Source: Poseidonia sp.
GTDB taxonomy: Archaea; Thermoplasmatota; Poseidoniia; Poseidoniales; Poseidoniaceae
Reading direction: 5' to 3'
Assembly (NCBI GenBank): GCA_049617635.1
Contig: JBMZJQ010000003.1
Location: 237 to 64,236, forward strand
Length of the DNA: 64,000 nt
Below the pieces are notes generated by a model. It searched no databases, was not told where the DNA came from, and saw only the letters and a program-made list of their open reading frames with translations. Numbering within the stretch: the stretch's first letter is position 1; every line of letters begins with the position of its first letter. Positions 5,378 through 25,800 of this stretch are shown here, in pieces. Both the position numbers and the translations under genes were made by a program.

Positions 5378-6223
5378 ATGCACAAATCTGCTTCGACATC
5401 CCGCATTGCGCTCCTCACGCTGGTGGGCGTCTTGCTGCTCCTCCCCACGCTCGCTTCGTCGTATCACGGCGGCATCGGCGGCGCTCAATCCCACCAAGGT
5501 TCAACCGGGCAAGTCGACATCGCCGATGTGGCAAAAACCGGGTGCCTCTGCCACAACGAAGTTGCCGACAACACCGTTCAGGTCATTCTTGACGACGTGC
5601 CCTACGGGTGGGTAGCAGGCGAGACCTACACCTTCCAGCTCCAACTCATCGGTGGCCCCACGTCATCTGGCCCGTACTACGGCGGCTTCTCCATGCGAGT
5701 CTCCCTTGGAACCCTTGCCAGTGCAGAGGGTCAGAACTGGGAAATTGACGGTGCTCTTGACGAACAATCGCTCACTCACACCGAAGCTTCTTCGGCCAAC
5801 GAGGACCGAGCATGGGTCATTGAATGGACGGCTCCTGCAGATGCTGGTGCCGGTGAAGTGAACTTCTGGATCGTCGGCAACTCCGTGAACGGTGACCAAG
5901 TTCCCGGCGTCGAAGACCGATGGAACCAACTGAATTTTGCTCTCTACGAAGGCGATGCATCGACCACCGCCATGGGCACCCGAACCTTGTTTGCCGGTGA
6001 TGGCAATGTGAGCCCTCCCGAGCCTGCCCACCACGGCGTTGACCTGCATCACATGGGTGCCAAACTGCGCGCCCACTGGCTCGGACTGCTCGGGTTTGGA
6101 GCCGTCATTGGCGTGATTATTTTCGCCGGCCTCTTGCTCCGCTACGGCTTTTCAACCTCTTACGAAGGGCGCACCAACCAACTGCGACTTCGCTACAAAC
6201 TCATGCGACGAGGTGATCAATGA
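5378..6223 (+). CDS. Secreted, C-terminally membrane-anchored protein with a CLCH motif and juxtamembrane His cluster; first gene of the Rieske/cytochrome b operon
   Basis: Signal peptide ALLTLVGVLLLLPTLASS. Only two Cys, in TGCLCHN (5543-5554). HHGVDLHHMGAKLRAH lies just before the TM helix LGLLGFGAVIGVIIFAGLLL. GGTGAGG SD-like motif upstream. The stop overlaps the next start (ATGA). Confidence 0.7.
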   Translation: MHKSASTSRIALLTLVGVLLLLPTLASSYHGGIGGAQSHQGSTGQVDIADVAKTGCLCHNEVADNTVQVILDDVPYGWVAGETYTFQLQLIGGPTSSGPYYGGFSMRVSLGTLASAEGQNWEIDGALDEQSLTHTEASSANEDRAWVIEWTAPADAGAGEVNFWIVGNSVNGDQVPGVEDRWNQLNFALYEGDASTTAMGTRTLFAGDGNVSPPEPAHHGVDLHHMGAKLRAHWLGLLGFGAVIGVIIFAGLLLRYGFSTSYEGRTNQLRLRYKLMRRGDQ

Positions 6224-6666
6224 TGGATGACACAATCACCACGCTCTTGCGAGGGGTTGCCGATGGAAGCATCAGCGTCGATGACGCCCGCACTGCGCTT
6301 GAGGGGGCAGAACTCACCGAGGACCAAATGACCTCGGCCATCGACCATGGTGTGTTCAATGTCGCCGAACCTGGGACCATTGTGAGCGCATCCCTTGCAC
6401 CTTCTGGAGGCTCGTACCTCACCATGTTCTTCTTCGCATGGGGCCTGTTCTGGATTTGTTACTGGAGTTTCTCCATGATTTACGGCCTTGCCAACGGATG
6501 GGACCAACAACAACTCTCGTTCCACCTTGCCATGACCTTGACCACCCTCATCATGGTGGGCATCATCTACCTCAAGTACATCCTGCCTGACACCATCATC
6601 GTCAAGCACGCCCAGAACAAATTCATTCCAGAGCACCAGAAAGACTGGCGGGAGTACAAGTGGTGA
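6220..6666 (+). CDS. Small two-helix membrane protein (operon subunit, unknown family)
   Basis: ATGA overlap with the upstream gene. Hydrophobic helices YLTMFFFAWGLFWICYWSFSMIYGL and LAMTLTTLIMVGIIYL. Confidence 0.6.
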   Translation: MMDDTITTLLRGVADGSISVDDARTALEGAELTEDQMTSAIDHGVFNVAEPGTIVSASLAPSGGSYLTMFFFAWGLFWICYWSFSMIYGLANGWDQQQLSFHLAMTLTTLIMVGIIYLKYILPDTIIVKHAQNKFIPEHQKDWREYKW

Positions 6667-6672
6667 TGCACA

Positions 6673-7518
6673 ATGGCACGAGAATACGAACTCAAACCCG
6701 CTCCATCCGACCTTGCAGACGGTGCCGCCGGTGCTGCAACCACCATCAATCGACGCCAATTCCTTCGCTACGGTTTCAACACCGCCGCAGGTGTGTTGAC
6801 CGCCTCTATCGGAATGCTTGGTTTTGCGGCCATTCTGTTGCCTCCGGGCGGCGGAGGCGGAGGTGACCTCGCTGTCCAATTCTGGGCCAAGGGCCGTGAA
6901 GACGAAGCATGGTACGGTGCCAAGCACCTTCAGCCCATGACCAAATCTGACTTCGTGGCCGAGGCGGCCAAGTCCTCCACGGGTACCGCAGGTGCAGCCG
7001 GTGTTTGGAACGGCGTGCCGGTGGTGGTGAATTACGTCGAGCACTCAAAGTATGCGGGAACGCCCGAATCCAACGGAAAAGCCCGCTTCCAATTCATGGA
7101 AGGCTACGACGAGACCGGCAAGTACGTTGGTCATTTCGAAGACCTGGCTGAGGCTGACCCACGCTTGATGCCTTCTGACGACCTCGTGATGGTCTTTGGT
7201 CGATGCACCCACCTGTGTTGCATCCCGGGATGGCAACTGGTGTCGAACTCCTTTACTGAGGACTCGTGGACGCCCGGCGGTGGTGACGACGGTGGTACCA
7301 AGATGTTCTGCATTTGCCATTCCTCTCGCTTTGACCCTACGGCGCTTGAGATGAACACCAACCGTAACCGTTCCAACGGAGCCACGTTCAACTACGTCGG
7401 CATCCGCCGAGCCGGTGGACCTGCGCCTGTGGGCTTGCCGCTGATCCCTATCCAACTCAACGGCGATGTCATTGAAGGCATCACCGATTATGTGGACTGG
7501 TACACGTACTGTGATTGA
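6673..7518 (+). CDS. Rieske [2Fe-2S] iron-sulfur protein with Tat-type signal/anchor
   Basis: Twin-arginine NRRQFLRYG plus a TM helix. Box I CTHLCC (7204-7221) and box II CICHSS (7309-7326). GGTGAT SD-like motif upstream. Confidence 0.9.
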   Translation: MAREYELKPAPSDLADGAAGAATTINRRQFLRYGFNTAAGVLTASIGMLGFAAILLPPGGGGGGDLAVQFWAKGREDEAWYGAKHLQPMTKSDFVAEAAKSSTGTAGAAGVWNGVPVVVNYVEHSKYAGTPESNGKARFQFMEGYDETGKYVGHFEDLAEADPRLMPSDDLVMVFGRCTHLCCIPGWQLVSNSFTEDSWTPGGGDDGGTKMFCICHSSRFDPTALEMNTNRNRSNGATFNYVGIRRAGGPAPVGLPLIPIQLNGDVIEGITDYVDWYTYCD

Positions 7519-7527
7519 GGTGAAGAC

Positions 7528-8394
7528 ATGACGACAATGTTCTGGATTTTGTGGTTCTTCATCGCGTTCCTCGTTCTTATCGTGGCGTTCACGCTGCGTA
7601 AAGAAAACGAGGAGATGCCCCGCCGGGATATTCTTCGGGCCGTGGAATCCACCGGGAAAATGGGCGTCGCTGAACGCTCGTTCCTCTGGGTGTTTTCCTG
7701 GCTCGATACCCGGTTTCGGCTACAGGACTACTGGAACATGTCAAAGGGTGCGTACTACAACATGCACCGCCAAATGCCGCTGACGCACGCCGAGAAGTAC
7801 AAGTTGCGCATCATTTGGTACTGGTACCCTCTCTACTGTTTGGGAGGTATCTCCTTCCTGTCCTTCATCATCCTCGTCATCACGGGAACCGTGCTGGGTA
7901 TCTACTACGTGCCCGGTGGTGAAGGTGACCCCTCCCCGGCTTATGCCAGCATGCAGTACATCATGACCCAGCTTCCGTTCGGCTACATCCTTCGAGCCGT
8001 TCACCACTGGACAACGCACTTCATGGTCGCCAGTGTGTTCCTTCACATGTGTCGCGTCTACTTTACCGGTGCCTACCGCAACCCGCGCGAACTCAACTGG
8101 CTCATCGGTGTGGCACTGATGGCCCTCACCATCGTGTTTGGATACTCCGGGTACCTCTTGCCGTGGGACAGTCTTGCCTACGGTGCTGCCATCATCGGTA
8201 TCAACTTGGCCAACTCCAGCCCGCTGGTGGGCAAGTACATCGCCACCCTCCTGTTTTCTGGTTCGGAATTGACGCCGCTGACGGTCACTCGAATGTACTT
8301 CATTCACGTTTTCATCTTGCCCGTGATCGTGACCACCCTCATCATCATCCATTTGTTCATCGTTTGGGTACAAGGAATTGCGGAGCCGCATTGA
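7528..8394 (+). CDS. petB: Cytochrome b, N-terminal four-helix (b6-like) subunit
   Basis: RAVHHWTTHFMVASVFLHMCRVYFTGAYRNPRELNWLIGV and GYLLPWD. Helix-D His pair in RMYFIHVFILPVIVTTLIIIHL, so four haem-ligand His are present. GAGGTGA SD upstream. Confidence 0.9.
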   Translation: MTTMFWILWFFIAFLVLIVAFTLRKENEEMPRRDILRAVESTGKMGVAERSFLWVFSWLDTRFRLQDYWNMSKGAYYNMHRQMPLTHAEKYKLRIIWYWYPLYCLGGISFLSFIILVITGTVLGIYYVPGGEGDPSPAYASMQYIMTQLPFGYILRAVHHWTTHFMVASVFLHMCRVYFTGAYRNPRELNWLIGVALMALTIVFGYSGYLLPWDSLAYGAAIIGINLANSSPLVGKYIATLLFSGSELTPLTVTRMYFIHVFILPVIVTTLIIIHLFIVWVQGIAEPH

Positions 8395-8409
8395 TACGGA
8401 GGGAATGAC

Positions 8410-11220
8410 ATGGGATTGATTGACAATTTTGGCCGCGTTGCCTCCATGTACATGGAGGAAAAAGCGAACCTTCAGGAAGCCGAGCAAAAGCGCAAGCGTA
8501 CCCGCACCGGTCACGGTTTTTGGCCTCACGAGGTGTTGCGTGACACCATTATTTTCTCCGCCATGTTGGCCATTTTGCTGTTTTACGCATGGCTGATTCC
8601 CCCGCCACTGCACGGTGCAGCCGACCCCTACGCTCAGGCTGGGTTCGTCTTCCCTGACTGGTACGTGCTGTTTTCCTACGGTTACCTGCGATGGGGCGAA
8701 TACCTGCCCCAATTCGTTGTTCCAACCGGCTTCATTGGCGACATCGTAGGCCAACCCATGTTCCCCTGGAACGCTGCTTGGTGGGGCGCTGCTCTGACCG
8801 GCATCCCTGTGGGCATTCTCGCTTTGCCACCTTTCCTTGGAGGCCGTGAAAAGCGACCTGTGGAAGACCCATGGTTTGCTGCAGCAGGTGCTGTGTATCT
8901 CGCCCACATCTGGTTCATCTCCGTGTTCTCCATCAACATCTTCTTGGAATTGTACGGGAAGAATCGTTCTGATTTTTGTAAACTCGATTCGCACGGGGAT
9001 TTGCTGTGTGGTGTACGTGAACCGTGGATAGCCGATGTGTTCAACGCGATACCGTGGGTGATGACCGGTGTGCTGTTGTGGATTTGTATCTACTTCATTG
9101 GCCGTGTTCTGCTCATCAAGGCATGGGGTGCAGGATTCACCGTTGCCAAGAGTCGCCAACTCCTCGTCGGCGCTTTGGTGATTTCCTCTGCCGCCACCGT
9201 GGCCACCTTCGACACCTATGACAACGGGTTCTGGGACGCAAAGGGATTGTTGACCATCAAGGATTACGGCGAACTCGAAGCAATGCGCACCCAACCCACG
9301 GACGTTCACGTCCACGACACCAACGAATTCACGGACGATCGTGGATGGTCGGACAGCGGCGTCGTCCCCACCACGGCGTGGTTGAACTGGAACATTTACC
9401 AGCCTGCCCGGTACATCATCACCGACTTTGCTGACGCCAACGGACATCAAGACCCAAGCAACGGTATCAATGCTGCCGCAGGTGGCACCACCTTCAACGG
9501 TGGTGAAGGCTTCTCAGTTACGGGAACCTTCACCATCACGGAAGACCCGACGCTCTTCCCAGAAGGCCACCCAGAAGAAGTCGAGACACTCACCACCGAC
9601 CTTTCCTGTGAATTCCGTTCCAGTGAGCGTAAAATCAACGACGTTTCAACACAAACCATGGTGGCCACCACCCTCTCAGTGACCGATGCCACCGGCGCCA
9701 CCCTGGTCTCCTTTGCAGACTGTGAAGGCGCCACCGTCGAGATGAAGGTTGGTACGTACAACTACGCCTACGACGTTGTTGTCAGCGGAGCACTGGCGCT
9801 GAACGACAGCATCGCCACGGAGACTGCGTTCAGCATTGCCGCCTATCAACCGCTTTTGGTATGGGACGAAGATGCTCCAGCAGCACTGGCAGGCCACACC
9901 GTGAACCTGAGCAATGCCGAAGAAATGGCGGCTGGCGGAACGGCGTTCTCCTACATTGAAAACCCGACCTACCATCAAAACCCCAAGTCCTTGGATGCAA
10001 AACTCACCTACGCCATGTTCATTCCTTGTGTGACCTTTGGTGCCCTGGTCTTCGTGCTGTTGCGCTACATGGCACGTGGATACGAGTTTGAGATGAACAA
10101 GTGTTACGGTTGCGACTTGTGTGACGATGCCTGTCCAGTTCGCCTGTTCAACGGCGGTGACAAACTCAACATCATCTACAACTCGTGGAACAACGAGGAC
10201 GACGGTGTGCCCCTCTATTCGTGTTTGACCTGTACGGCGTGCACCAATGCCTGTCCCCAACTTGTCAACTACGACTCCTATGTTGATATCCGCCGTAGCT
10301 TGATCGTTGGCGGCCCACAAGCCGAAATTCCTCACACGGTGCTCCAGGCTGTTCTCAACGCTGAAGCCGAAGAAGCTGCTGATGACGATTTCATCGCCAC
10401 AGAGGACTACCCCATCACCTCAAACATCGGGTATTATCCCGGTTGTGTTGACTACCTCGACCAAGAAATGGTGTTCTCCCACGTCAACGAGGGAACCATG
10501 AATTTGGGCGATACCACCACGGCGGCGTTTACGCTGTTCGAGGAAATGGGTACCGACGTGTCCTACCTTGGCCGAGATTTCCTCAAGTGCTGTGGACACG
10601 ACCAAAAGTGGCAAGGTCTGGATGAGGTCTTTGAGAAACTCAAGGCATACAATCAGCGGAAGATCAACGAATCCGGCATCGACACCTTGGTCTCGTCGTG
10701 TGCAGAATGTTTCCGTACCTTTGCTCGAGACTACGAGTTGGAGAACGTGAAGGTCATGCACACCACCGAGTTCTTGATTGAACAGGGCTTTGACATGAAC
10801 CTGAAGTCCGAGGAAACCACGGTGACCTATCACGACCCGTGCAGACTTGGCCGTCAAATGGGCATCTACGATGAACCTCGGGAACTCATCAACGCCGTGG
10901 AAGGTGTCGAAATCGTTGAGATGGAGCACCACGGTGAAGACGCCATGTGCTGCGGTGTCTCCAGCATGATGTCGTGCAACGAGAACGCTCGCTCCCTCCG
11001 TGTCACACGCATGGAAGAAGTTCGTGCCACCGGCGCCGATACCATGCTCACCTCATGTCCGAAGTGTGTCTCTCACTTCGAGTGTTTGAAGTTTGAAGGC
11101 GATGAAGCCTATGCCGATATCGAGATTCTTGATGTCGTGTCCTTCCTCGCTCGACAGGTCAACGAGAAGAAGGGTGCGCTGGCTTCCGAGGCTTCCTCGG
11201 TTGAAAACGTCGAAGCCTGA
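8410..11220 (+). CDS. Fusion: cytochrome b C-terminal (subunit IV-like) domain + extracytoplasmic insert + TM helix + HdrD/GlpC-type 2x[4Fe-4S] / 2xCCG iron-sulfur module
   Basis: N-terminus: HGFWPHEVLRD, Qo-type FPDWYVLFSYGYLRW (PDWY 8653-8664), about 5 helices. Middle: about 270 aa Thr/Ala/Asp-rich segment. Helix YAMFIPCVTFGALVFVLLRYM. C-terminus: CYGCDLCDDACP, CLTCTACTNACP, KCCGHD, YHDPCRLGR, MCCGVS, LTSCPKCVSHF. GGAGG SD 9 nt upstream. Confidence 0.85.
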   Translation: MGLIDNFGRVASMYMEEKANLQEAEQKRKRTRTGHGFWPHEVLRDTIIFSAMLAILLFYAWLIPPPLHGAADPYAQAGFVFPDWYVLFSYGYLRWGEYLPQFVVPTGFIGDIVGQPMFPWNAAWWGAALTGIPVGILALPPFLGGREKRPVEDPWFAAAGAVYLAHIWFISVFSINIFLELYGKNRSDFCKLDSHGDLLCGVREPWIADVFNAIPWVMTGVLLWICIYFIGRVLLIKAWGAGFTVAKSRQLLVGALVISSAATVATFDTYDNGFWDAKGLLTIKDYGELEAMRTQPTDVHVHDTNEFTDDRGWSDSGVVPTTAWLNWNIYQPARYIITDFADANGHQDPSNGINAAAGGTTFNGGEGFSVTGTFTITEDPTLFPEGHPEEVETLTTDLSCEFRSSERKINDVSTQTMVATTLSVTDATGATLVSFADCEGATVEMKVGTYNYAYDVVVSGALALNDSIATETAFSIAAYQPLLVWDEDAPAALAGHTVNLSNAEEMAAGGTAFSYIENPTYHQNPKSLDAKLTYAMFIPCVTFGALVFVLLRYMARGYEFEMNKCYGCDLCDDACPVRLFNGGDKLNIIYNSWNNEDDGVPLYSCLTCTACTNACPQLVNYDSYVDIRRSLIVGGPQAEIPHTVLQAVLNAEAEEAADDDFIATEDYPITSNIGYYPGCVDYLDQEMVFSHVNEGTMNLGDTTTAAFTLFEEMGTDVSYLGRDFLKCCGHDQKWQGLDEVFEKLKAYNQRKINESGIDTLVSSCAECFRTFARDYELENVKVMHTTEFLIEQGFDMNLKSEETTVTYHDPCRLGRQMGIYDEPRELINAVEGVEIVEMEHHGEDAMCCGVSSMMSCNENARSLRVTRMEEVRATGADTMLTSCPKCVSHFECLKFEGDEAYADIEILDVVSFLARQVNEKKGALASEASSVENVEA

Positions 11221-11546: not shown

Positions 11547-11879
11547 TCATCGGTCAATCATCGTGATGGCGTCGGTCGGGCATGCCAAAACACAGAGCCG
11601 GCAGCCCGTGCATGCGTCTCGAAGAATCTTCGCTTTTCTGTTGCTTTCAACCTTCATCAATGGACTGCGAACGTCAACATGGTAGAGTTCAATCGCATCG
11701 TCATCGCACACGATGGTGCATTGGTCGCAACCAATGCATTTCCGCTCTTCCACAAACGCCACCGTGCCTTCACCGCCTTTGGTGTTGGCACGTTGCTCAC
11801 CACGCTGACGATTCAGCGCCGTTCGAATGCGAAGGGCTTCTTCTTCTCGTCGCTTTCGCAACTCGTCCGCCCCCGTCAT
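11547..11879 (-). CDS. 2x[4Fe-4S] ferredoxin-domain protein with basic N-terminal extension
   Basis: CIGCDQCTIVCD and CTGCRLCVLACP motifs. ATGA overlap with the upstream membrane-protein gene. Confidence 0.8.
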   Translation of the reverse strand: MTGADELRKRREEEALRIRTALNRQRGEQRANTKGGEGTVAFVEERKCIGCDQCTIVCDDDAIELYHVDVRSPLMKVESNRKAKILRDACTGCRLCVLACPTDAITMIDR

Positions 11880-12592: not shown

Positions 12593-14896
12593 TCAATCGT
12601 CACCATGGTACATTCGCCGAGAAAGTTGGATGCTGAGAATCAACGTCAAGAGAGCGATGATGAGTCCAAGGGTGAGATAGATTGCCCGTTCAACATCACT
12701 CGCCTCAACTTGTTCCTCCACTTCCACTTCCTGTTCCGGACAATCTCCACGCATCTCACATGTCGTTTCAACCGGCTCAACTTCTTCCGGCTCAGTTTCG
12801 TTTTCATCAACCTCGGGTTGTGGATAGGTGCAGCTTCCGTCGTCGAGCTCGCTGTTCATATCATAATTGAGAGCTTCCGGGTCGGTACAGCCTTCGACAG
12901 GCTCTTCGACCACTTCCGGGTAAGTGCATGTTGATGCGTTATGTACCTCGGTGCTTGGGTCATAGTTGGTGGCCTCTGCATCGTGGCAACCTTCCGTTGG
13001 TGGTGGGTATTCGCAGCTTCCATCGTCGGCATCAGCCTCCGGGTTGTGGTTCAGAGCCGTTGAATCGGTGCATCCGTAAACAGGAGGTGGCGGTGGGTAT
13101 TCACACAGATCCTCATCGTTCACAGTAGCGTTTTCGTCATAATTGAGGGCCGTATCATCCATGCATCCGACAACATCTGGTGGCGGGTATTCGCAGGTTC
13201 CATCATCAACTTCGGCTTGTGGGTCGTAGTTCAATGCCGTTGAATCCGTGCATCCTAGAATCAGTTCCTCTTCTTCTTCGCATCCTTGTTCGTCAACGGG
13301 AAGTTGAGGCGCTGTTCCCGGGCACCAATCATTGTTGTTGGACACACCGTCTTGGTCGTCATCTTCGATACAACCATCGCCGTTCCAATCCCAGAGCACA
13401 TCGTCACCTCCATCTGGACATATGTCGTCGTAGGACTCAATCACGCCAAACCGAGCAAGAGGTAAGGTTTGCAAGCGTGTGTCGTTCAATGGAAACCATT
13501 CCGCTTTGAAAAAGATCGGAGGGAAATTCCGTTGATTTCGTGAGGCGATTTCGCCTCCAGGGTTGAGCGGTACGTTGTATTCCCAATCGATTTGGCTGTC
13601 GTTTCCGATTTGACCGAGTTTTCCTCGCAGCGAGTGGGAGACCATGAATTGCCCGTTTGGCAACAGGGTCGCTCCAGATTGAAACCTTGGCCCCCAACCT
13701 GCGGGAAGGGTAAATTCGATATCAGGTTGAGCCGGGTCGTACATTCCCGTTGATTTGTTCAAGCGAAAAATGTCACCTTGCCGAGGTGGTGTAAAAATCC
13801 CAATGCTTGAGGGCCCGGAAACATCGTTGGAAAAATAGGAGATGGAACCAGCAAACGGCCGTCCAGGAGGAATGAACTGTGCGTCATGCTGCGTCACCGT
13901 GTATTGGTCCGCGGCAGAACCCATGTCGTAATTCATGGGGTTGCCCCAACGGTAGAGGAGGTCGCCTGCAGAACCGTTACTTTCATCCCACGAGAGGTTG
14001 TGATTGATGATGTACAATTCCTCCGTGTGTCGACAAGAGAGGAGGATGTGCTTGTGAATTGGATCGTAGTCAATTGAATTGCAATGCATCCAATCTGCAT
14101 CATCTGCTCGAATATTCGGGCCAACGGCGTTGATGTTGATTTTTTCTGGGTAATCGGCCGGATTGCCGTAGGTAGGGAGCATGGAGTCTTCGTGCTGAAC
14201 AAGATGGTCTGATGCTCGCCACATCCATACAATTTCGGCACCACCCGTTTCGTTTTTCGCATATTCAATCACCACGTCCGGCCAAAGACCATCGGACGTG
14301 ATCAAGTTGTCTTTACGTCCCATGGATTTACCTGTTGTTTCATCAAAATACTCCCAAGCGATGGCCAAGACATTGCCGTTGGGCAAAAATGTAGCATCAT
14401 GGTGTAAACGGTAATTGTTGGCGTATTCGGTGATTTCCCACATCAGGTTGCTGTTGGCGTCCAAGATTTCGATATGGGTGGAGGCTCCACCGGCTTCCAT
14501 GAGCAGGGGTCCTTCATCAACAGGAAGGTCATTGACAACTTGCAACAAGGTGCCGTTTGGCCCGAGGTCCATGCCGTAACCTGAACCGTTTGGATGGGAT
14601 GTTGTCCACTGGTGGCGGAGTTCGCCTCGGTGATCGATGAGGTAGATGATTTCGTGGGAAGTTCCAGAGAACAGGGTGTATCCCTCCTGTGTCTCGTTGT
14701 TGCAATGAAGCATGCCAGCCTCCGCACCAACATACAATTTGTTGCAGCTTGGAGGAATGGGATCTGTGGGTTGTTGCTGCCGGCCTGTTTCAGCCGCGTT
14801 GACTGCCCATGGCGATGCCACCAAGATAAAGAGCAAAAAAACGGCATAGGTCTGTATTTTGGCCTGCTTTCGTGGATGACTTTCGGAGAAATTCAT
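12593..14896 (-). CDS. Secreted arylsulfotransferase (ASST)-like beta-propeller protein with Ca-binding and Cys repeats and a C-terminal TM anchor
   Basis: Signal peptide. EGYTLFSGTSHEIIYLIDHRGELRHQW, YRLHHDATFLPNGNVLAIAWEY, DWMHCNSIDYDP, LLSCRHTEELYIINH (recalled ASST-family pattern). DWNGDGCIEDDDQDG. Five CxDxxAxNYD modules. TM helix LTLGLIIALLTLILSI. Confidence 0.65.
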   Translation of the reverse strand: MNFSESHPRKQAKIQTYAVFLLFILVASPWAVNAAETGRQQQPTDPIPPSCNKLYVGAEAGMLHCNNETQEGYTLFSGTSHEIIYLIDHRGELRHQWTTSHPNGSGYGMDLGPNGTLLQVVNDLPVDEGPLLMEAGGASTHIEILDANSNLMWEITEYANNYRLHHDATFLPNGNVLAIAWEYFDETTGKSMGRKDNLITSDGLWPDVVIEYAKNETGGAEIVWMWRASDHLVQHEDSMLPTYGNPADYPEKININAVGPNIRADDADWMHCNSIDYDPIHKHILLSCRHTEELYIINHNLSWDESNGSAGDLLYRWGNPMNYDMGSAADQYTVTQHDAQFIPPGRPFAGSISYFSNDVSGPSSIGIFTPPRQGDIFRLNKSTGMYDPAQPDIEFTLPAGWGPRFQSGATLLPNGQFMVSHSLRGKLGQIGNDSQIDWEYNVPLNPGGEIASRNQRNFPPIFFKAEWFPLNDTRLQTLPLARFGVIESYDDICPDGGDDVLWDWNGDGCIEDDDQDGVSNNNDWCPGTAPQLPVDEQGCEEEEELILGCTDSTALNYDPQAEVDDGTCEYPPPDVVGCMDDTALNYDENATVNDEDLCEYPPPPPVYGCTDSTALNHNPEADADDGSCEYPPPTEGCHDAEATNYDPSTEVHNASTCTYPEVVEEPVEGCTDPEALNYDMNSELDDGSCTYPQPEVDENETEPEEVEPVETTCEMRGDCPEQEVEVEEQVEASDVERAIYLTLGLIIALLTLILSIQLSRRMYHGDD
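12815..13255 (-). repeat. In-frame coding tandem repeat: 5 copies of an approximately 30-aa G-C-[TMH]-D-x-x-A-x-N-[YH]-[DN]...D-D-G-[ST]-C-x-Y-P module
   Basis: GCTDSTALNYDPQAEVDDGTCEYPPP / GCMDDTALNYDENATVNDEDLCEYPPPPP / GCTDSTALNHNPEADADDGSCEYPPP / GCHDAEATNYDPSTEVHNASTCTYP / GCTDPEALNYDMNSELDDGSCTYPQP. Confidence 0.85.
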
Positions 14897-15040: not shown

Positions 15041-16252
15041 TCATTCCGCGGACTGTCGCTGCCAGTTCAGTGATTCATTTCCCATGGCGATCATGCTCAA
15101 CTCCGCCACCAATGCGTGCCAGCCGTGGGCATCGGTGAGGTAGGGGTTCTGGGATTGGTCAAAGTTTTCAAATCGGGCACTTGGGGAGTTCAAATTGTCC
15201 ATGTCGGATTTCTTGGCGTTGATGCGATAAAACCAGGACGCAGCTTCTCCATCCACAAGATAAACAACAGGCTCGAGAGCCTCGCCTTCTTCGGATGTGA
15301 GCGCAGTCGGAATGCCTTCTTGGATGAGGTAGTTCTCAACATCAGTCCCGCCTTTGGCGTAGCGAAGTTTGTTCGCCTTCCGGTTTGAGAGGTTGAGTAT
15401 TTCACTTCCCGATTTCAGCACCATCACGCCCAAACCGTATGTGCCGCTATCGTTCTTGATGACCACCGTCGGTTCACGCTCGATTCCTTTTTCTTCGTAG
15501 GTGGCACGAAGTTTGCTGAGGAAATCGTCAATTTCTGCTGCGAGGCGTATTTTGCAAGCATCCTCTGTAAGGCATTTGTCTTCAGAAACAAACCATTCAG
15601 GCATCAAAAACCAAGGGTCCATGCCCAAGATTTGGGCCATTTCCTCGACGTAGGGTCGAAGCGCCTCGTAGTGTTCGGACTTTCTGCGCCGATACCAACC
15701 CATGTGGGGAGGTGGCGTGATGTTGGGTCCTTCGAGCCCGGGGATGCTGCCCTCGGTCAAATCGTTGTTGAGCAAAATGAGGTCGGGTATCGCACCTGCT
15801 ACGGAAAGGTTGTCTTCATTCATCTCCACACGATCGAGCAACAACGGTCCTGAAAGGCCGTGAAGGGAAGAAAAGTCGTTCAGGGCGACGGAACCGACCG
15901 TGCATCGGAAACCGGCTTGCTCGACGATGGACTTGATGGTGGCGATGTTTTCAACATAGGCTTGGTTTCGGGTATGACTTTCTGGCAACAAATGCACCCA
16001 TTGGCACCCTGGATGCGCACGCTGGAGATGCTCGGCAAACAAGTGAGCAAGTTCCTTCACGCTTTCTTGGGGGACGTTGTTGAATCCAGCAGGAAAATGG
16101 TTGGCATCAACCACACCGACTTTCCATCCAGCATCCCGCACATCAACGCTGCCGTAGATGGGTATGGGTACTTCTGACCTTTTTTTCTTCATCCATGCCT
16201 TGATGGCCTCCCTGTTCTCCTCCAAGGCATCTTGATAGTCTCTCAATTTCAT
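15041..16252 (-). CDS. Probable glutamate--cysteine ligase of the rare GshA (T. ferrooxidans-type) family
   Basis: 403 aa. N-terminal IPIYGSVDVRDAGWKVGVVDANHFPAGFNN matches my recollection of the GshA family (about 400 aa). The assignment is from memory only. The ORF itself is solid. Confidence 0.5.
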   Translation of the reverse strand: MKLRDYQDALEENREAIKAWMKKKRSEVPIPIYGSVDVRDAGWKVGVVDANHFPAGFNNVPQESVKELAHLFAEHLQRAHPGCQWVHLLPESHTRNQAYVENIATIKSIVEQAGFRCTVGSVALNDFSSLHGLSGPLLLDRVEMNEDNLSVAGAIPDLILLNNDLTEGSIPGLEGPNITPPPHMGWYRRRKSEHYEALRPYVEEMAQILGMDPWFLMPEWFVSEDKCLTEDACKIRLAAEIDDFLSKLRATYEEKGIEREPTVVIKNDSGTYGLGVMVLKSGSEILNLSNRKANKLRYAKGGTDVENYLIQEGIPTALTSEEGEALEPVVYLVDGEAASWFYRINAKKSDMDNLNSPSARFENFDQSQNPYLTDAHGWHALVAELSMIAMGNESLNWQRQSAE

Positions 16253-18033
16253 GGTGTCAGCACCTCCGCTACCAAATCGTCAATCGTGGCCTTCGTCTTT
16301 CGATGCCCGTCTTCCCTCAAATGGAGGGCGTCAAACAACCCCAGCCCGAGTGCCAATTCCTCTTGGCCTTTCAGCACCCTCTTCCAAGGTGAATAATGAG
16401 CCAATAACTGCTCAATGTTGCTCACATGGTCGGTGAGGAAGGCGTCCAACATCGTCGGTGAGGTTGCTCTTCCAGCAGGGAGTTTCGGACGGCGAACGAT
16501 GTCTTTTGGAAGTGAGGTTAAGTCTGCTGCTCGGCGTAAAGCTGCTTTTTCTTCTCTCGTGCTCCCACGCTTCCACGCCAACGGTAATTCATTGGACGCT
16601 GTGCGGTGTTCCTTGCCGAGGAACGGCACCCTTACCTCAAGGGAGTGGGCCATTGAGTGTCGGTCAACAAGGCGAAGTTGGAAGTTGCTGAGTTGGCCGT
16701 GTTCGAGTTCAAAATTCAACATGGATTCCAAATCCTCGGTGACCTCGAGTGGATCGTGCTTTGCTTGATACCAACCGTCACCAGCCGTCAGTGTGCCTTG
16801 GAGCAAGGCGTTACGATGAGATTCGGGTAAAGCGTTCATGCGAGCGTGAAGTTCCGTCCCGTGGCGAGCAAGTTCGCCGTACCTTGGGTACCCGCCATGC
16901 AATTCATCCGCCCCTTGGCCGCACAGACCTACCTTGACCTTCTTTGCCATCGCTTCAAACAGAGGATGGAAGAACATCACGGTCACGTCCGTATCCTCTC
17001 CGTGCCATGCCAGTTGGGGGAGGCGGCGTTCAAAAGCATCGGGCTCCAGAATGTGTTGGTGGTGGACGAGGTCATGGTGCGATGCGACGATTTCAGCAGC
17101 AACCCAGTCAGGATTCTCTTCGCTTTCTGCCACGGTCCAACATTCCGGTACCGGCTGATTCGCACGCTGTGAGGCCTCGTGCGCAACGGCACAAACCAAA
17201 CTTGAATCCAAACCACCCGAGAGGACGATACCAACGGGAACATCCGCCATCAATCGCTGCTGAACGCTGTGAACAAACGATTCAAGCAGCCCGGCCGCCT
17301 CGGTGTTAGGGTTCCACGTGCTGCTTGGGACAAGGCGCTGTCGTTCAATCGAGGCGACATCTTCCAACGTCGCCCGGCCTTGGTCATCGAGGCGCCAACA
17401 TTCCACGGTTCCCGAACGAACTTGGTGAACGCCTTGAAGCAGGGTGGTGCCGTCGAGCGGATATTCCCAAACGAGGCGTGCGGCGAGAGCAACCTCATCC
17501 AACATCGGCGAGTACGCTTCATCGGCATGGAATGCCTTCACTTCACTGGCGAACAGGAGGTGGTCTTTCACGGTGGTTCGCACCAGCGGTTTGATCCCGA
17601 GGGGGTCTCTGCCGAGCAGAAGTTGACGATGGCGGGGGTCCCAGAGCGCAAAAGCGTACATCCCATCGAGTTCACCAATCCAGTTGGCGTGTTCGCGAGC
17701 AGAGCACCGGCGTCCAGACGCTGTGGCTGCAGCGTGGAGGGCGAGCAGCGTTTCGCTGTCCCCCGCTGTTTGAAACGGATAGGATGCATGGCGGGCTCGA
17801 AGCGAGCGATGGTTGTAGATCTCTCCGTTGACCACCAACACCGCACCGTGTTCACCCCGCATCGGTTGTTGGCTTGATGCAAGGTCCAGGATAGCCAGTC
17901 GAGCATGGGCAAAGCCAACATCGTCGTCCATCCACACGTCGTTGGCGTCGGGGCCACGGTGGGCTTGAAGCGTGTTCATGCGGTTGAGAATGGACTGGTC
18001 GGGCTGCCCCAACATGCCACCGATGCCGCACAT
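16249..18033 (-). CDS. asnB: Asparagine synthase (glutamine-hydrolysing) family amidotransferase
   Basis: N-terminal MCGIGG (Ntn Cys2), HRGPD, and PP-loop LSGGLDSS. 594 aa. The stop overlaps the start of the downstream GshA-like gene (ATGA at 16249-16252). Confidence 0.85.
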   Translation of the reverse strand: MCGIGGMLGQPDQSILNRMNTLQAHRGPDANDVWMDDDVGFAHARLAILDLASSQQPMRGEHGAVLVVNGEIYNHRSLRARHASYPFQTAGDSETLLALHAAATASGRRCSAREHANWIGELDGMYAFALWDPRHRQLLLGRDPLGIKPLVRTTVKDHLLFASEVKAFHADEAYSPMLDEVALAARLVWEYPLDGTTLLQGVHQVRSGTVECWRLDDQGRATLEDVASIERQRLVPSSTWNPNTEAAGLLESFVHSVQQRLMADVPVGIVLSGGLDSSLVCAVAHEASQRANQPVPECWTVAESEENPDWVAAEIVASHHDLVHHQHILEPDAFERRLPQLAWHGEDTDVTVMFFHPLFEAMAKKVKVGLCGQGADELHGGYPRYGELARHGTELHARMNALPESHRNALLQGTLTAGDGWYQAKHDPLEVTEDLESMLNFELEHGQLSNFQLRLVDRHSMAHSLEVRVPFLGKEHRTASNELPLAWKRGSTREEKAALRRAADLTSLPKDIVRRPKLPAGRATSPTMLDAFLTDHVSNIEQLLAHYSPWKRVLKGQEELALGLGLFDALHLREDGHRKTKATIDDLVAEVLTP

Positions 18034-22590: not shown

Positions 22591-22830
22591 ATGGACGAGA
22601 AACCTGTGTGCGACCTTCCGGGATGTGGTGAAGAGGGTACCATCGTTTCTCGCCTCTCGCCCGAGGGGTATCTTGTTGCTACCGGGAAAAAGGCCTACTC
22701 GTTTCGAGAAGCATACCGTCGGTTCCACTATTGTCAAACGCACCACGATGAGTTGATGGGAGGCGTTTGGTCTCGTGTCCGCCAACCCGACGACAAAGGG
22801 GATGGGCACGTGGCCCCAACCGCTATTTGA
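22591..22830 (+). CDS. Small Cys/His-rich hypothetical protein (possible zinc binder)
   Basis: ATG at 22591 is preceded by GGAGGTGAT (22571-22579). CDLPGC ... HYCQTHH. 79 aa. No family recognised. Confidence 0.4.
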   Translation: MDEKPVCDLPGCGEEGTIVSRLSPEGYLVATGKKAYSFREAYRRFHYCQTHHDELMGGVWSRVRQPDDKGDGHVAPTAI

Positions 22831-22847
22831 GCCCGTTCGGGGTAGGT

Positions 22848-22856
22848 GTGATATAC
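22848..22856 (+). promoter_or_regulatory. TATA-box-like element about 25 nt upstream of the ATG at 22877 (suggests a leaderless transcript)
   Basis: ATATACTAT centred about 25 nt upstream of the start codon of the 1356-aa surface-protein gene. Spacing is typical for archaeal TATA-to-TSS. Confidence 0.3.
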
Positions 22857-22876
22857 TATCCAACATTGGTTTGGTC

Positions 22877-25800
22877 ATGCGCCATGTTGCAGCCACAAAG
22901 CAAGCCAAAGCGAGCTCCCTCGTCTTGATGCTGGTCCTTGCCTCTCTTCTCGCTATGTTCACACCCGGCGTGCAAGCCGTTGGACCTAACCAAAACGACC
23001 TCAACAGTAGCGGTGATTTGCCCGACAACATGACGGTCAACATCACGAATTACATCTTCAGCAGCACCTACTCAGGAACGGGTGAACTCGATTGGGGGGA
23101 CGATGATGACTTCATTCGAGTAGCTCTCACAAGCACCCAAGGCCTTGCCGCCACCCTCTCCTTCGCCAACACCACCACGTTTTCGAACGGAACCACGGTC
23201 TCCAATGATTTCGACCTGGCCTTTTACGACAGCTCGATGAACATGATGACGATGTCGTGGAACAGCAATCCTGAATCGGTCACGACCAACGGGAGCACCT
23301 CCGGTCACGGTGGCATGGTCTATGTTGGAATTTCGCGCTGGACCGGTTCGGGTGCTTGGACGTTGAACCTCTACAAATTCACGGTCAGCAGTACCGGTGG
23401 AAACGGAACGGGTGGGCCAGGCGGCGGGACCATCACAAACTGCACGGGCAACAACACCCTCGCTTCAGACATCTTGGAGCCCAACGACAGTACCGCCACG
23501 GCTTCACCCGCCAACATGTTGCCGTTAACCTGCACCGGGCTTTCGATCCATTCCACTTCGGACATTGATTTCTTCGAAGTCTACATGATTGCAGGAACCA
23601 CTTACTACGCCAACATCACCTTCTTGCATGCCAACGGCGACATCGATGTCAGCTGGCAGACGTCTCTTGGTGGCTTCCTTGACAGCGGGGGTTCCGTCAC
23701 CGACGATGAGACCATGCAGGTGACGGCCAGTGTCAATCAAACAACCTACATTGAAGTCTTCGGGTACAGCGGCGCTACCAACACCTATGGCATCGACATC
23801 ACAACGGACAATCCCGGAGGAGGCCAAACCTTCGAAACGGTCACGGTCAACATGGTCAATACCTCGTTCTCGACCCTATCGTTCAGCGGTCTTACCAACG
23901 GCACGACCTATCAGTACAACCATTCGTACGGGCACGAGTACCTCGACGGGAATTTTACATGGAGCACCTCCGTCACAGGCAATTTCACGGCCAACGGCAC
24001 GACACACGCCATGAACATCACCACCCAAGCAGCCTCTGGCGAGGGTGAGATGTACGTGATGGCCTCCTTGCTTTCGGCCACTGGAACCTACCTCCATGCA
24101 GACATCGATACCACCTACATCGAGTCGGTTGAAGCAGCCGTCACCTCGTCAACTTCGGGTGACATCAGCGTCACGAACCTCTCCACCTCAACCACGTACA
24201 CCTTGGAATGGGTCACCCTTGATTACGACGAGTGGATGACCAATTATTCAGTCTCCAACGATGTCCATGCCGCCATCAACGCCTCCATGATCGACAGCGA
24301 TTCCTGGAGCATTTCCAACACCGCCTCGGTGAGTTACCAAGTCAATTGGACGGGCCCGACCACAATGAACGACCATCTGTTCCTTGCCTACATCTATTTG
24401 CCTGGCACGGTTCCGGATTTGGACACCAACGAAAACCTCACTGGACTCCATTTTGATGAGTTCATTCCACAACTTCCCGCCCTTGTCCTGAATGGCTATT
24501 CGACCAGTTCAACGGCGAGCACCAACAACGTGCAAGCCAAGGGTGCCGATTTGGTGGTGGGCGACAGCTACCAGTACCAATATCGAGTGACCGATGCTTC
24601 CGGGGCCAACTTGGCCACGTCTTCCATGACCTCGTTTACCGCCACGGCGCAAAACATGAGCATCACCTCGTGGAGTTACACCACGCCCACCTCATCGGGC
24701 ACCTACTGCGTCCACATCGACCTGTATTCCAACGTCTCGGTGCAGTTGATCGGCGACGACGATTGTTTCCAAATCACCATCGATGACGACAACGACGGTG
24801 TGGCCAACGAGGCCGACCAATGCCCCAACACCGCTACGGGGGCCATCGTTGACCAGTACGGTTGTGCCCTCGCTCAGAAGGACACCGACGGCGACGGCTA
24901 CAACGATGCTGTTGATGCCTTCCCCACCGACGCCACCCAATGGTCCGATATGGACGGAGATGGTTACGGGGACAACGCCAGTGGCAACAACCCCGATGCC
25001 TTCCCAACCGACGGAAGCCAGTGGTCCGATGCCGATGGTGACGGCTACGGTGATAACGCCAGCGGGAACATGCCGGATGCCTTCCCCATGGACCCCACGC
25101 AGTGGTCGGACGCTGACGGCGACGGCTACGGTGACAACGCCAGTGGCAACAACCCCGATGCATGGCCCTCGGACAGTACGCAATGGGCTGACAGCGACGG
25201 CGATGGCTACGGTGATAACCCAACCGGAACCAACGGTGACGCCTTCCCCACCGACCCCACGCAGTGGTCCGATGCAGACGGCGATGGCTACGGCGACAAT
25301 CCAAACGGAACCACACCAGATGCGTTCCCCAACGACGGTACACAATGGGCCGACGGTGATGGCGACGGTTACGGTGACAATCCCAACGGCAACAACGGGG
25401 ACGATTTCCCCAACGACCCAAGCCAGTGGAGCGATGCGGACGGTGACGGCTACGGTGACAATCAAGCAGGAACCAGTCCTGATGCCTTCCCATCTGATTC
25501 AACCCAGTGGAACGACACGGACGGTGACGGATACGGCGATAACGCAGCGGGGCTCAACGCTGATGCCTTCCCGAACGACTCGACGCAATGGCGAGACGCC
25601 GATGGCGACGGTTACGGCGACAATGCCAACGGGAACAACCCCGATCTTTGTCTAAACACACCTTCCGGTGAAGCCGTTGATGAAAACGGCTGTTCGGCCT
25701 CTCAACTCGACGCTGACATGGACGGTGTGAGCGATTCGCTCGATGCCTGCCCCGATACGCCAGCCGGCGAACCTGTTGACAATGTTGGATGCTCAAGCAG

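Follow-up and report, generated by a model that had tools for sequence, protein, structure and literature searches.

Ferredoxin-dependent reduction of quinone by cytochrome b6f has been proposed for decades as a route of cyclic electron flow, with electrons entering on the negative (n) side of the membrane near heme cn. In the mycobacterial protein EtfD, electrons pass from the electron transfer flavoprotein (ETF) through D1, D2, D3 and D4 to heme b and on to menaquinone, the clusters being shielded; a Thr (T539) replaces the second Cys of the first CCG domain (CCG-1), with a linear [3Fe-4S] cluster, and a His (H583) caps the noncubane cluster (PMC13083937). For the Rieske/cytochrome b complexes of anammox bacteria, diversion of the low-potential electron by an n-side subunit has been proposed and is as yet unproven (PMC12954380). 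Among archaea, hdrD-like and rnfB-like genes were reported near complex III in Ca. Angelarchaeales, with an entry of ferredoxin electrons suggested in one sentence (Diamond et al., 2022; PMC9038741), and Marine Group II (MGII) archaea, which lack RnfACDEG, were found to carry an “MGII-specific complex III” and an orphan RnfB that was left unexplained (Tully, 2019; PMC6336850). Here we analyze a gene at positions 8410 to 11,220 of a 64,000-nucleotide stretch of Poseidonia sp. DNA (GenBank assembly GCA_049617635.1, contig JBMZJQ010000003.1, positions 237 to 64,236 of the forward strand), which we refer to in its full length as the window. Judged by its sequence, the 936-residue product is the subunit IV (the cytochrome b C-terminal part) in a Rieske/cytochrome b complex of b6 type from a Poseidoniales (MGII) archaeon. 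Its C-terminal 380 residues are predicted to make up a module of HdrD/EtfD type in the cytoplasm, which has two cubane [4Fe-4S] sites and, in addition, two CCG cluster sites, both of them complete.

Marine Group II ranks with the most abundant archaea of the plankton, and we know of no cultured representative. The locus ties the “MGII-specific” complex III to the orphan “RnfB,” in that the ferredoxin gene adjoins those of a complex III in which a cytoplasmic iron-sulfur (Fe-S)/CCG module is attached to subunit IV, and this arrangement suggests a direct exchange of the complex with the ferredoxin pool of the cell. An earlier, sequence-only reading of this DNA had recognized the fusion and knew of no characterized example; neither an example nor an explicit description was found in the literature that we searched, and the fusion is not mentioned in Dibrova 2017 or Baymann 2012. 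The function that we infer for it would be of interest to bioenergetics and marine microbiology alike.

Architecture and conservation of the fusion protein

The gene and the parts of its product are as follows (TM, transmembrane; p-side, the membrane's positive side).

8410..11220, plus strand: fusion gene, an uninterrupted open reading frame (ORF) of 936 codons, the last gene of a conserved operon
8410..9138 (residues 1-243), plus strand: cytochrome b C-terminal/subunit IV module with the n-side motif GHGFWPHEVLRD, helices E, F, G and H, and an ef loop with PDWY
9160..10068, plus strand: MGII-specific hairpin insertion, with TM5 (251-269), a predicted p-side ectodomain (270-531) and TM6 leading from residue 532 back into the cytoplasm
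10069..10419 (residues 554-670), plus strand: predicted cytoplasmic 2x[4Fe-4S] ferredoxin-type domain, C565-x2-C-x2-C-x3-CP and C605-x2-C-x2-C-x3-CP
10420..11220, plus strand: two CCG domains (residues ~671-915) and a C-terminal tail, with Pfam CCG and EtfD/LutA/HdrB matches

The reading frame is single, and every motif listed by the sequence-only reading was recovered in its place: PDWY at residues 82-85 (nucleotides 8653-8664), CYGCDLCDDACP at 565-576, CLTCTACTNACP at 605-616, KCCGHD at 726-731, HDPC at 808-811, MCCG at 846-849 and CPKC at 883-886. Both five-Cys sets of the CCG domains are complete (C679, C727, C728, C764 and C767; C811, C847, C848, C883 and C886). The profile searches that had been proposed as a check succeeded in part, as Pfam recognizes CCG in two stretches (8.9e-24) and Fer4_8, Fer4_9 and Fer4_10 at about 3e-07, and does not detect Cytochrom_B_C on residues 1-297, even at E<=10. 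The cytochrome b assignment is carried instead by the family to which the module belongs. Searched as a single sequence against the PDB, the N-terminal module gave a marginal match to b6f subunit IV (E 0.16, with the PEWY region aligned). A phmmer search with residues 1-267 against 1.84 billion representatives returned 123 matches, and the ten of these that were scanned (34-43% identity, E 1e-21 to 1e-13) all match PF00032, nine above the gathering score and one just below it. A family profile built from 20 N-terminal modules (A4) matched the C-terminal half of bacterial cytochrome b in the PDB (2yiu_A, residues 229-380) at E 4.3e-15 and b6f subunit IV (2e74_B) at E 1.8e-12. PDWY, G91, P141 and R149 are invariant in this family, C190 and C200 in the p-side GH loop are invariant among the orthologues, and GHGFWPHEVLRD, on the n-side ahead of helix E, corresponds to the WPNDLL stretch of b6f subunit IV.

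Six TM segments are found by hydropathy: 46-64 (E), 126-144 (F), 157-179 (G), 218-240 (H), 251-269 (TM5) and 532-550 (TM6). The first five, together with the A4 profile, bear out the earlier description of a cytochrome b C-terminal part with PDWY and about five hydrophobic segments, and TM6 is the one further helix from which a 5+1 parity had been read. The loops rich in K/R (1-45, 145-156, 244-250 and after 551) lie on the side of both termini, and the protein is therefore predicted to be N-in/C-in with its Fe-S/CCG module in the cytoplasm, as that parity implied. A cytoplasmic C-terminus also fits the need for Fe-S cluster insertion without an export signal. The loop at 270-531 holds 39 D/E against 11 K/R. 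It agrees with the Thr/Ala/Asp-rich, extracytoplasmic middle part described from the letters, being acidic and rich in T, A, D and G, and its Cys number only two, the invariant C400 and C438, which does not vary among 20 orthologues.

For the C-terminal module, the best NCBIfam match is TfrB (2.9e-33), and the scores lie well below the equivalog cutoffs for TfrB (115 vs. 385), LdhH (84 vs. 800), GlpC (46.5 vs. 278), DsrK (41.6 vs. 400) and GlcF (33 vs. 333). EtfD (9ojn_A) is the sole strong match of solved structure by sequence (E 1.2e-25, over residues 51-379 of a 386-residue C-terminal query segment), and the second Fer4 motif of the fusion aligns with EtfD C412/415/418/422. Automated annotation labels such fusions “HdrD” or “Fe-S oxidoreductase,” overlooking the cytochrome b half, and this may mislead metabolic reconstructions. 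A 569-codon ORF on the opposite strand (7741-9450, minus) spans parts of the cytochrome b and fusion genes without support of its own, and is taken as a chance ORF and a pitfall for gene callers.

A model of the full-length fusion was built with AlphaFold2 (AF2) on 67 sequences and reached a mean predicted local distance difference test (pLDDT) of 66.6, with values of 80-93 at residues ~200-550, where the ectodomain forms a beta-sandwich with strands at 355-485, and of 70-86 in the CCG region; the TM N-terminus and the Fe-S domain were modeled poorly (<50). Compared with the PDB by Foldseek, the CCG part matched EtfD (9ojn, 2.8e-10, 28% identity), a LutA model (TM-score 0.75) and HdrB (1e-07). 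The ectodomain gave generic beta-sandwich matches alone (a GOLD domain, the phage lambda tail fibre gpJ and viral capsids, at E of about 1e-4 to 1e-3), and its standout conserved residues are C400, C438 and two semi-conserved His. A redox domain of cupredoxin, cytochrome or DOMON-like type that would replace cytochrome c1/f was considered for this region and rejected, as it has no conserved set of Cu or heme ligands. Its role on the outer face is probably structural or one of docking. Related archaea offer other arrangements of this kind, such as a cytochrome b N-terminal subunit fused to a Big_5 Ig-like ectodomain (L003 898-3174 and L086 5426-7924, 758 and 832 residues) and a subunit IV homologue fused to a Laminin_G_3 domain (P0161, 577 residues). 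The recurrence of p-side beta-sandwich ectodomains on different subunits of these archaeal complexes suggests a shared need at the outer face.

The fusion is widely conserved. Among its 486 homologues, the best 120 are mostly full length (915-942 residues) and share 61-94% identity with it; the full-length orthologues were recovered from assemblies that are independent of one another (ENA, JGI, NCBI, Tara and Logan), several of them named Poseidoniaceae or Thalassarchaeaceae. The survey of related metagenome-assembled genomes that had been called for found the same architecture at more than 50 Poseidoniales loci, counted at one genome per GTDB species. The window itself is closest to Poseidonia (MGIIa), and its cytochrome b is 99.3% identical to the counterpart at locus L081. 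Conservation of the cluster-binding Cys was counted in two alignments, of 20 and of 67 orthologues: all 18 are invariant in the former, and in the latter 17 of the 18 are invariant, including all ten of the CCG domains, with C565 conserved in at least 90%. Mean identity computed by region among 66 MGII orthologues is 79% in the cytochrome b C-terminal module, 41% in TM5, 50% in the ectodomain, 89% in the Fe-S domain and 86% in the CCG domains, and most indels fall in the ectodomain. The cytoplasmic Fe-S/CCG module is the most constrained part of the fusion, as its mean identity of 86-89% stands against 50% in the ectodomain.

Such a composite protein could arise on paper from a subunit IV-like and an HdrD-like gene merged by misassembly or by a sequencing error between 9190 and 10100, and the silence of Pfam on residues 1-560 would be in keeping with that. 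Against it stand more than 100 full-length orthologues of 915-942 residues from independent assemblies and over 50 GTDB species genomes. The interval is also uninterrupted in the AG-422-I22 record (L041), which is named like a single-cell genome and holds the same intact ORF, and the independent check that the sequence-only reading had asked for thus came out in favor of the fusion. The middle region is modeled confidently as a beta-sandwich, indels in the ectodomain preserve the frame so that every orthologue is full length, and the short fusions of other phyla have the subunit IV and HdrD-like modules in direct succession. We have rejected the merged gene on the strength of the independent orthologues and the AG-422-I22 record, and regard its chances as negligible.

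The operon, the neighboring ferredoxin and relatives in other archaea

The genes around the fusion are listed below in their order along the window.

5378..6223, plus strand: secreted protein, operon gene 1, with an N-terminal signal/TM segment, a beta-rich ectodomain, a conserved C-terminal TM anchor and a basic tail
6220..6666, plus strand: DUF7318-like small membrane protein, operon gene 2 (weak Pfam DUF7318 match, 0.003)
6673..7518, plus strand: divergent Rieske [2Fe-2S] protein, with the twin-arginine signal RRQFLRYG and the boxes CTHLCC and CICHSS
7528..8394, plus strand: four-helix cytochrome b of b6 type, preceded at the N-terminus by an extra TM helix (residues 1-25), with YCLGG at 103-107
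11547..11879, minus strand: soluble 2x[4Fe-4S] ferredoxin of 110 residues, the orphan “RnfB” of MGII, with a charged N-terminal extension of ~40 residues; convergent with the operon here

The order of secreted protein, DUF7318, Rieske protein, b6-type cytochrome b and fusion is kept in MGIIa and MGIIb, whose flanks were inspected through orthologues 83% (L083) and 61% (L084) identical to the window protein, and the GTDB species loci and the AG-422-I22 record likewise show the order of Rieske protein, cytochrome b and fusion. A Rieske/cytochrome b complex wired to a cytoplasmic HdrD-type module, as the sequence-only reading proposed, is in accord with the Rieske and cytochrome b genes lying directly upstream. 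The cytochrome b is recognized by Pfam (Cytochrome_B, 1e-40) and finds its best PDB matches in cytochrome b6 (4.5e-43); its His pairs, read from the sequence, are H-x13-H in helix B and H-x14-H in helix D, and its YCLGG aligns exactly on the YCLGG of b6, whose Cys binds heme cn. The C[LF]GG motif is conserved in 63 of the 65 loci in which the fusion is immediately preceded by the cytochrome b gene. Between this gene and the fusion, which share a reading frame, lie one stop codon and five codons (window 7528-8409).

The Rieske protein is more divergent. It has no Pfam match, its NCBIfam match to Rieske_proteo (1.7e-08) lies below the cutoff, and PDB entry 7yr9_A is aligned across both boxes at E 0.02. 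The motifs RR.F, C.HLCC and C.CH.S are conserved in 52 loci, and the assignment as a Rieske protein rests on motifs and context. The operon holds no cytochrome c1/f-like gene and encodes no CxxCH protein, as judged by Pfam, NCBIfam, motif and PDB profile searches. In the position where a c1/f-type acceptor would be expected stands the protein of gene 1, which matches the NCBIfam “choice-of-anchor V domain” (87 bits vs. a cutoff of 42) and nothing in Pfam or, by profile, in the PDB; its G-C-x-C-H motif (residues 55-59) is invariant, and its C-terminal helix and basic tail are highly conserved (30-44 orthologues). We consider it a candidate p-side partner of the Rieske protein. The DUF7318 gene occupies the same position in MGIIb loci and in a short-fusion locus from outside MGII (P0151), and its product may be a previously unrecognized small subunit of archaeal Rieske/cytochrome b complexes. 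At that same locus, a Reeler-domain protein (a weak match) is encoded upstream of the DUF7318 gene.

The ferredoxin downstream of the operon matches Pfam Fer4_21 (2.8e-14). Its best NCBIfam match is the rnfB subfamily (6.8e-14, 51.8 vs. a cutoff of 68.7), and it has no hydrophobic segment, unlike the membrane-anchored RnfB, so that we do not count it as a member of an Rnf complex; it is presumably the “orphan RnfB” reported for MGII (PMC6336850). MGII species loci with a flank of 1 kb or more number 50, and all 50 have an orthologue of this ferredoxin downstream of the fusion, within 400 nucleotides in 45. It is co-directional in 28, often 0-100 nucleotides away as a sixth gene, and convergent in 22, having been flipped in part of MGIIa; in the AG-422-I22 record it lies 25 nucleotides downstream of the fusion.

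Beyond MGII, proteins of 543 (P0166), 583 (P0149), 626 (P0164) and 789 residues (P0151) carry Cytochrom_B_C and Fer4 together with a pair of CCG domains, the hairpin and ectodomain being absent, and in P0166 and P0164 four hydrophobic segments are followed within 15-40 residues by the first cluster motif. Since these short fusions have neither hairpin nor ectodomain, the MGII form can be read as a short fusion into which the TM5-ectodomain-TM6 hairpin was inserted. Full-length short fusions occur in Thermoplasmata, Bathyarchaeia and Geothermarchaeales, in all cases with a cytochrome b gene directly upstream, and at the P0166 locus a Rieske gene is annotated upstream as well. On their downstream side, they adjoin HdrA-, MvhD-, FrhB-like or polyferredoxin genes: HdrC, HdrB, HdrA (1010 residues) and FlpD at the P0166 locus, a split HdrA-like flavoprotein with a Fer4 protein and FlpD at others, an FrhB-like protein with a double HdrA in Geothermarchaeales, and at the P0151 locus a polyferredoxin that starts 1 nucleotide after the fusion gene. 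In every case, the cytoplasmic partners encoded with the fusions are carriers of low potential, either Fe-S proteins or flavoproteins. Outside the fusions, the module has its closest relatives in soluble HdrD-like proteins of 323 residues with a single ferredoxin half-motif, whose genes stand directly ahead of hdrC, hdrB and a 1017-residue hdrA in Methanoperedens and ANME-2, as at L014 8046-13499 of Ca. Methanoperedens nitroreducens. The ectodomain-less fusions in other archaeal phyla, the gene association in PMC9038741 and the anammox n-side precedent are points that the sequence-only reading did not contain.

Other genes of the window deserve brief mention. About 4 kb from the operon, a gene for the glutamate-cysteine ligase GshA (15041-16252, minus strand; 1.7e-102) overlaps a gene for an asparagine-synthase-like amidotransferase (16249-18033, minus strand); the MGIIa locus L083 has the same pair, the MGIIb locus L084 lacks it, and the two genes hint at a thiol of the gamma-glutamylcysteine type. 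Two large proteins that resemble arylsulfotransferases and carry thrombospondin type 3 repeats are encoded at 12593-14896 and 40043-42256 (both minus strand), the former being an insertion relative to the syntenic locus L083, and a TSP_3-repeat protein of 1390 residues at 22775-26947 (plus strand).

Function of the cytoplasmic module

We propose that the Fe-S module would be seated under the n-side of the complex and act as a chain of Fe-S clusters between the soluble RnfB-like ferredoxin of the adjacent gene and, at the other end, hemes bn/cn with the quinone site of the n-side (Qn). Flow would likely be inward, from reduced ferredoxin (with 2-oxoacid:ferredoxin oxidoreductases as a candidate source) through the CCG and cubane clusters to heme bn/cn and on to quinone at Qn, and the same complex would re-oxidize quinol at Qo through the Rieske protein. 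The net result would be a hard-wired ferredoxin:quinone reductase built onto complex III. To this combination, an n-side electron port with a ferredoxin-to-quinone direction, we assign a probability of roughly 0.45. The direction is favored because MGII are described as obligate aerobic heterotrophs (PMC6336850), because EtfD is a precedent for CCG clusters as an input wire, and because the same idea has been raised for Angelarchaeales (PMC9038741). With respect to the partner, a ferredoxin port fits better than a disulfide output on account of the conserved ferredoxin neighbor, the carrier genes beside the short fusions, the CxGG motif of the b6-type subunit and the wire of EtfD.

Several observations weigh against this proposal. 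The adjacency of the ferredoxin is circumstantial, and in the 22 convergent loci the gene is not co-transcribed with the operon. Covalent attachment of heme cn in archaea is so far a prediction from the CxGG motif, and AF2 confidence is low in the TM and Fe-S parts. Both CCG sites keep the five-Cys sets of the catalytic HdrB/HdrD type, and the non-catalytic substitutions of EtfD are absent (C728 vs. EtfD T539, E766 vs. EtfD H583); a substrate-converting site may therefore have been retained. Furthermore, the best family model is that of a thiol:fumarate reductase, TfrB, and the nearest relatives of the module sit with HdrCBA, both of which point to thiol/disulfide chemistry.

These last points belong to the view that the protein is a thiol/disulfide oxidoreductase of the HdrD/TfrB/DsrK type, in which the CCG pair would be catalytic, reducing a cytoplasmic disulfide or oxidizing thiols, and would trade electrons, in the manner of HdrDE or DsrMK, with the quinone pool and the b hemes, the substrate being a low-molecular-weight thiol or perhaps a DsrC-, TusA- or lipoate-type carrier protein. 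Besides the complete and invariant five-Cys sets, it can draw on the second Cys of CCG-1, lost in EtfD and kept here, on the absence of a counterpart to EtfD His583, on the TfrB match (2.9e-33), on the HdrD-like genes ahead of hdrCBA in Methanoperedens/ANME-2 as the closest homologues of the module, and on the glutamate-cysteine ligase gene 4 kb away in MGIIa. Complete CCG motifs are also found, however, in enzymes that do not act on thiols, namely LutA, GlpC and the type E succinate dehydrogenase SdhE, and the fold match to LutA (TM-score 0.75) is to one of these. The equivalog cutoffs are not approached (TfrB 115 vs. 385, DsrK 42 vs. 400), and no conserved thiol-carrier or disulfide gene adjoins the operon, GshA being absent from the MGIIb neighborhood and the conserved neighbor being a ferredoxin. 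The hosts, moreover, are described as obligate aerobic heterotrophs (PMC6336850) and are not methanogens. We hold this view to be improbable, and the more specific suggestion of the sequence-only reading, that quinol oxidation at Qo could reduce a cytoplasmic disulfide at a catalytic CCG site, found nothing specific in its support, with no thiol/disulfide partner evident. Even less probable, in our estimation, is that the module serves as a docking and entry site for a flavoprotein dehydrogenase, whether ETF (as in EtfD/EMO-like proteins) or a lactate, glycolate or glycerol-3-phosphate dehydrogenase (LutA-, GlcF- or GlpC-like), from which electrons would pass into quinone via the cytochrome b. 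EtfD is indeed the top solved match by sequence (1.2e-25) and by fold, with the LutA model at 0.75, and EtfD couples beta-oxidation to menaquinone (PMC13083937), a pertinent role in archaea reported to degrade fatty acids and proteins (PMC6336850). Yet no ETF, acyl-CoA dehydrogenase, Lut, Glc or Glp genes lie within ~10 kb of the fusion in the MGIIa and MGIIb loci, none is present among the large ORFs scanned at 22-42 kb of the window, the cluster substitutions specific to EtfD are not shared, and the LdhH, GlpC and GlcF scores are far under their cutoffs.

The port could also run the other way, a view that comes close to the idea of the sequence-only reading. Bifurcation at Qo would send the high-potential electron via the Rieske protein to oxygen and the low-potential electron via bp, bn/cn and the Fe-S chain to the neighboring ferredoxin, instead of or besides the quinone at Qn, so that respiration would generate a low-potential reductant. 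The architecture and the adjacency of the ferredoxin serve this direction equally, n-side Fe-S/FAD (flavin adenine dinucleotide) subunits that take electrons from bn/cn for NAD(P)H have been proposed in anammox complexes (PMC12954380), and in anaerobic relatives the fusion stands beside HdrA-type bifurcating flavoproteins. The proton-motive yield of the Q cycle would be sacrificed, though, the anammox precedent is itself unproven, and the sequence holds no feature that would fix the direction. Where an aerobic heterotroph obtains its reduced ferredoxin from 2-oxoacids, it needs ferredoxin oxidation more than reduction, which speaks against an output. On balance, we consider outward flow unlikely. 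In its strictest form, an obligatorily ferredoxin-coupled Rieske/b6 complex would let Qo bifurcation, pulled by oxygen reduction, drive the second electron uphill via bp, bn/cn and the Fe-S chain, making reduced ferredoxin from quinol; this we regard as a long shot, and if true, it would amount to a respiratory “reverse Rnf” without ion pumping in highly abundant archaea of the surface ocean.

Should the n-side electron port prove true, it would provide a testable route by which ferredoxin electrons return to the respiratory chain in aerobic MGII and possibly in other Thermoplasmatota. It would represent a natural, covalently wired case of the n-side electron exchange with a b6-type complex that is debated for b6f cyclic flow and for anammox. 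It would likewise be a case of an HdrD-type CCG module recruited to a Q-cycle enzyme and not to a NarI-type anchor.

Comparison with known complexes

By its core features, the MGII complex is a member of the Rieske/cytochrome b family and of its b6f type. It shares with the complexes of cyanobacteria, chloroplasts and Firmicutes a split cytochrome b, with a four-helix b6 that carries CxGG and the 13/14 His spacing and a separate subunit IV with P(E/D)WY, as well as a Rieske protein with a twin-arginine targeting signal; on the n-side, too, (F)WP(H)E(V)L in subunit IV resembles PAWPNDLL of b6f. In contrast to b6f-type complexes, the MGII subunit IV extends to a fourth helix, H, known from bc1, and further to a hairpin with a 260-residue ectodomain and a fused cytoplasmic Fe-S/CCG module of 380 residues, the Rieske protein is too divergent for Pfam, and in place of cytochrome f/c1 there are the GCxCH secreted protein and the DUF7318 protein.

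The module begins with 2x[4Fe-4S] and continues with two CCG domains of 5+5 Cys, an order that it shares with HdrDE, DsrMK, TmcBC and HmcEF (PMC13083937), whose own module likewise adjoins, from the cytoplasmic side, a membrane protein with b heme that is linked to the quinone pool. The MGII anchor, unlike theirs, is the C-terminal half of a Rieske-type cytochrome b without heme ligands of its own and not a dihaem cytochrome of NarI/HdrE type; the module is covalently fused, has no context of coenzyme M/coenzyme B (CoM/CoB) or DsrC, and misses the NCBIfam equivalog cutoffs. An identity with the HdrD of HdrDE was considered and set aside given the Rieske-type anchor and the Poseidoniales host; the order of the Cys motifs does agree. 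EtfD (Rv0338c/MSMEG homologue, 9ojn), which we group with the ETF:menaquinone oxidoreductases of syntrophs, resembles the fusion in combining a TM domain, 2x[4Fe-4S] and two CCG domains in one polypeptide in an aerobe. Its membrane domain, however, consists of five NarI-type helices with a heme b of its own, where MGII has a cytochrome b C-terminal domain; the window protein has C728 and E766 in place of T539 and H583, and no etf genes occur in the flanks. With anchor type, diagnostic residues and flanking genes all differing, we rejected an identity as EtfD/ETF:menaquinone oxidoreductase.

The Rieske/cytochrome b complexes of anammox bacteria (Kuenenia) are alike in their b6-type core, which has heme cN in the published models, and in an extra subunit on the cytoplasmic side, whose Fe-S clusters lead from bN/cN to a redox site in the cytoplasm (PMC12954380). 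Their n-side module differs in being a separate Fe-S flavoprotein that binds FAD and NAD(P), and they have multihaem cytochromes on the p-side, whereas the MGII operon, from an aerobic archaeon, has no flavoprotein gene, its CCG module resembles HdrD and is part of the subunit IV polypeptide, and the partner would be a ferredoxin. The hdrD-like gene of Angelarchaeales and the MGII complex III of earlier reports are probably the same gene family with the same RnfB-like association; those reports (PMC9038741; PMC6336850) treat hdrD as a neighboring gene and RnfB as an orphan, and contain no description of a fusion with subunit IV or of its topology, of the heme-cn motif, of the inserted ectodomain or of the spread of the family. 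Taken together, the MGII complex resembles EtfD or HdrDE grafted onto complex III, and in concept it would be akin to the anammox complexes and to the ferredoxin-quinone reductase activity proposed for b6f.

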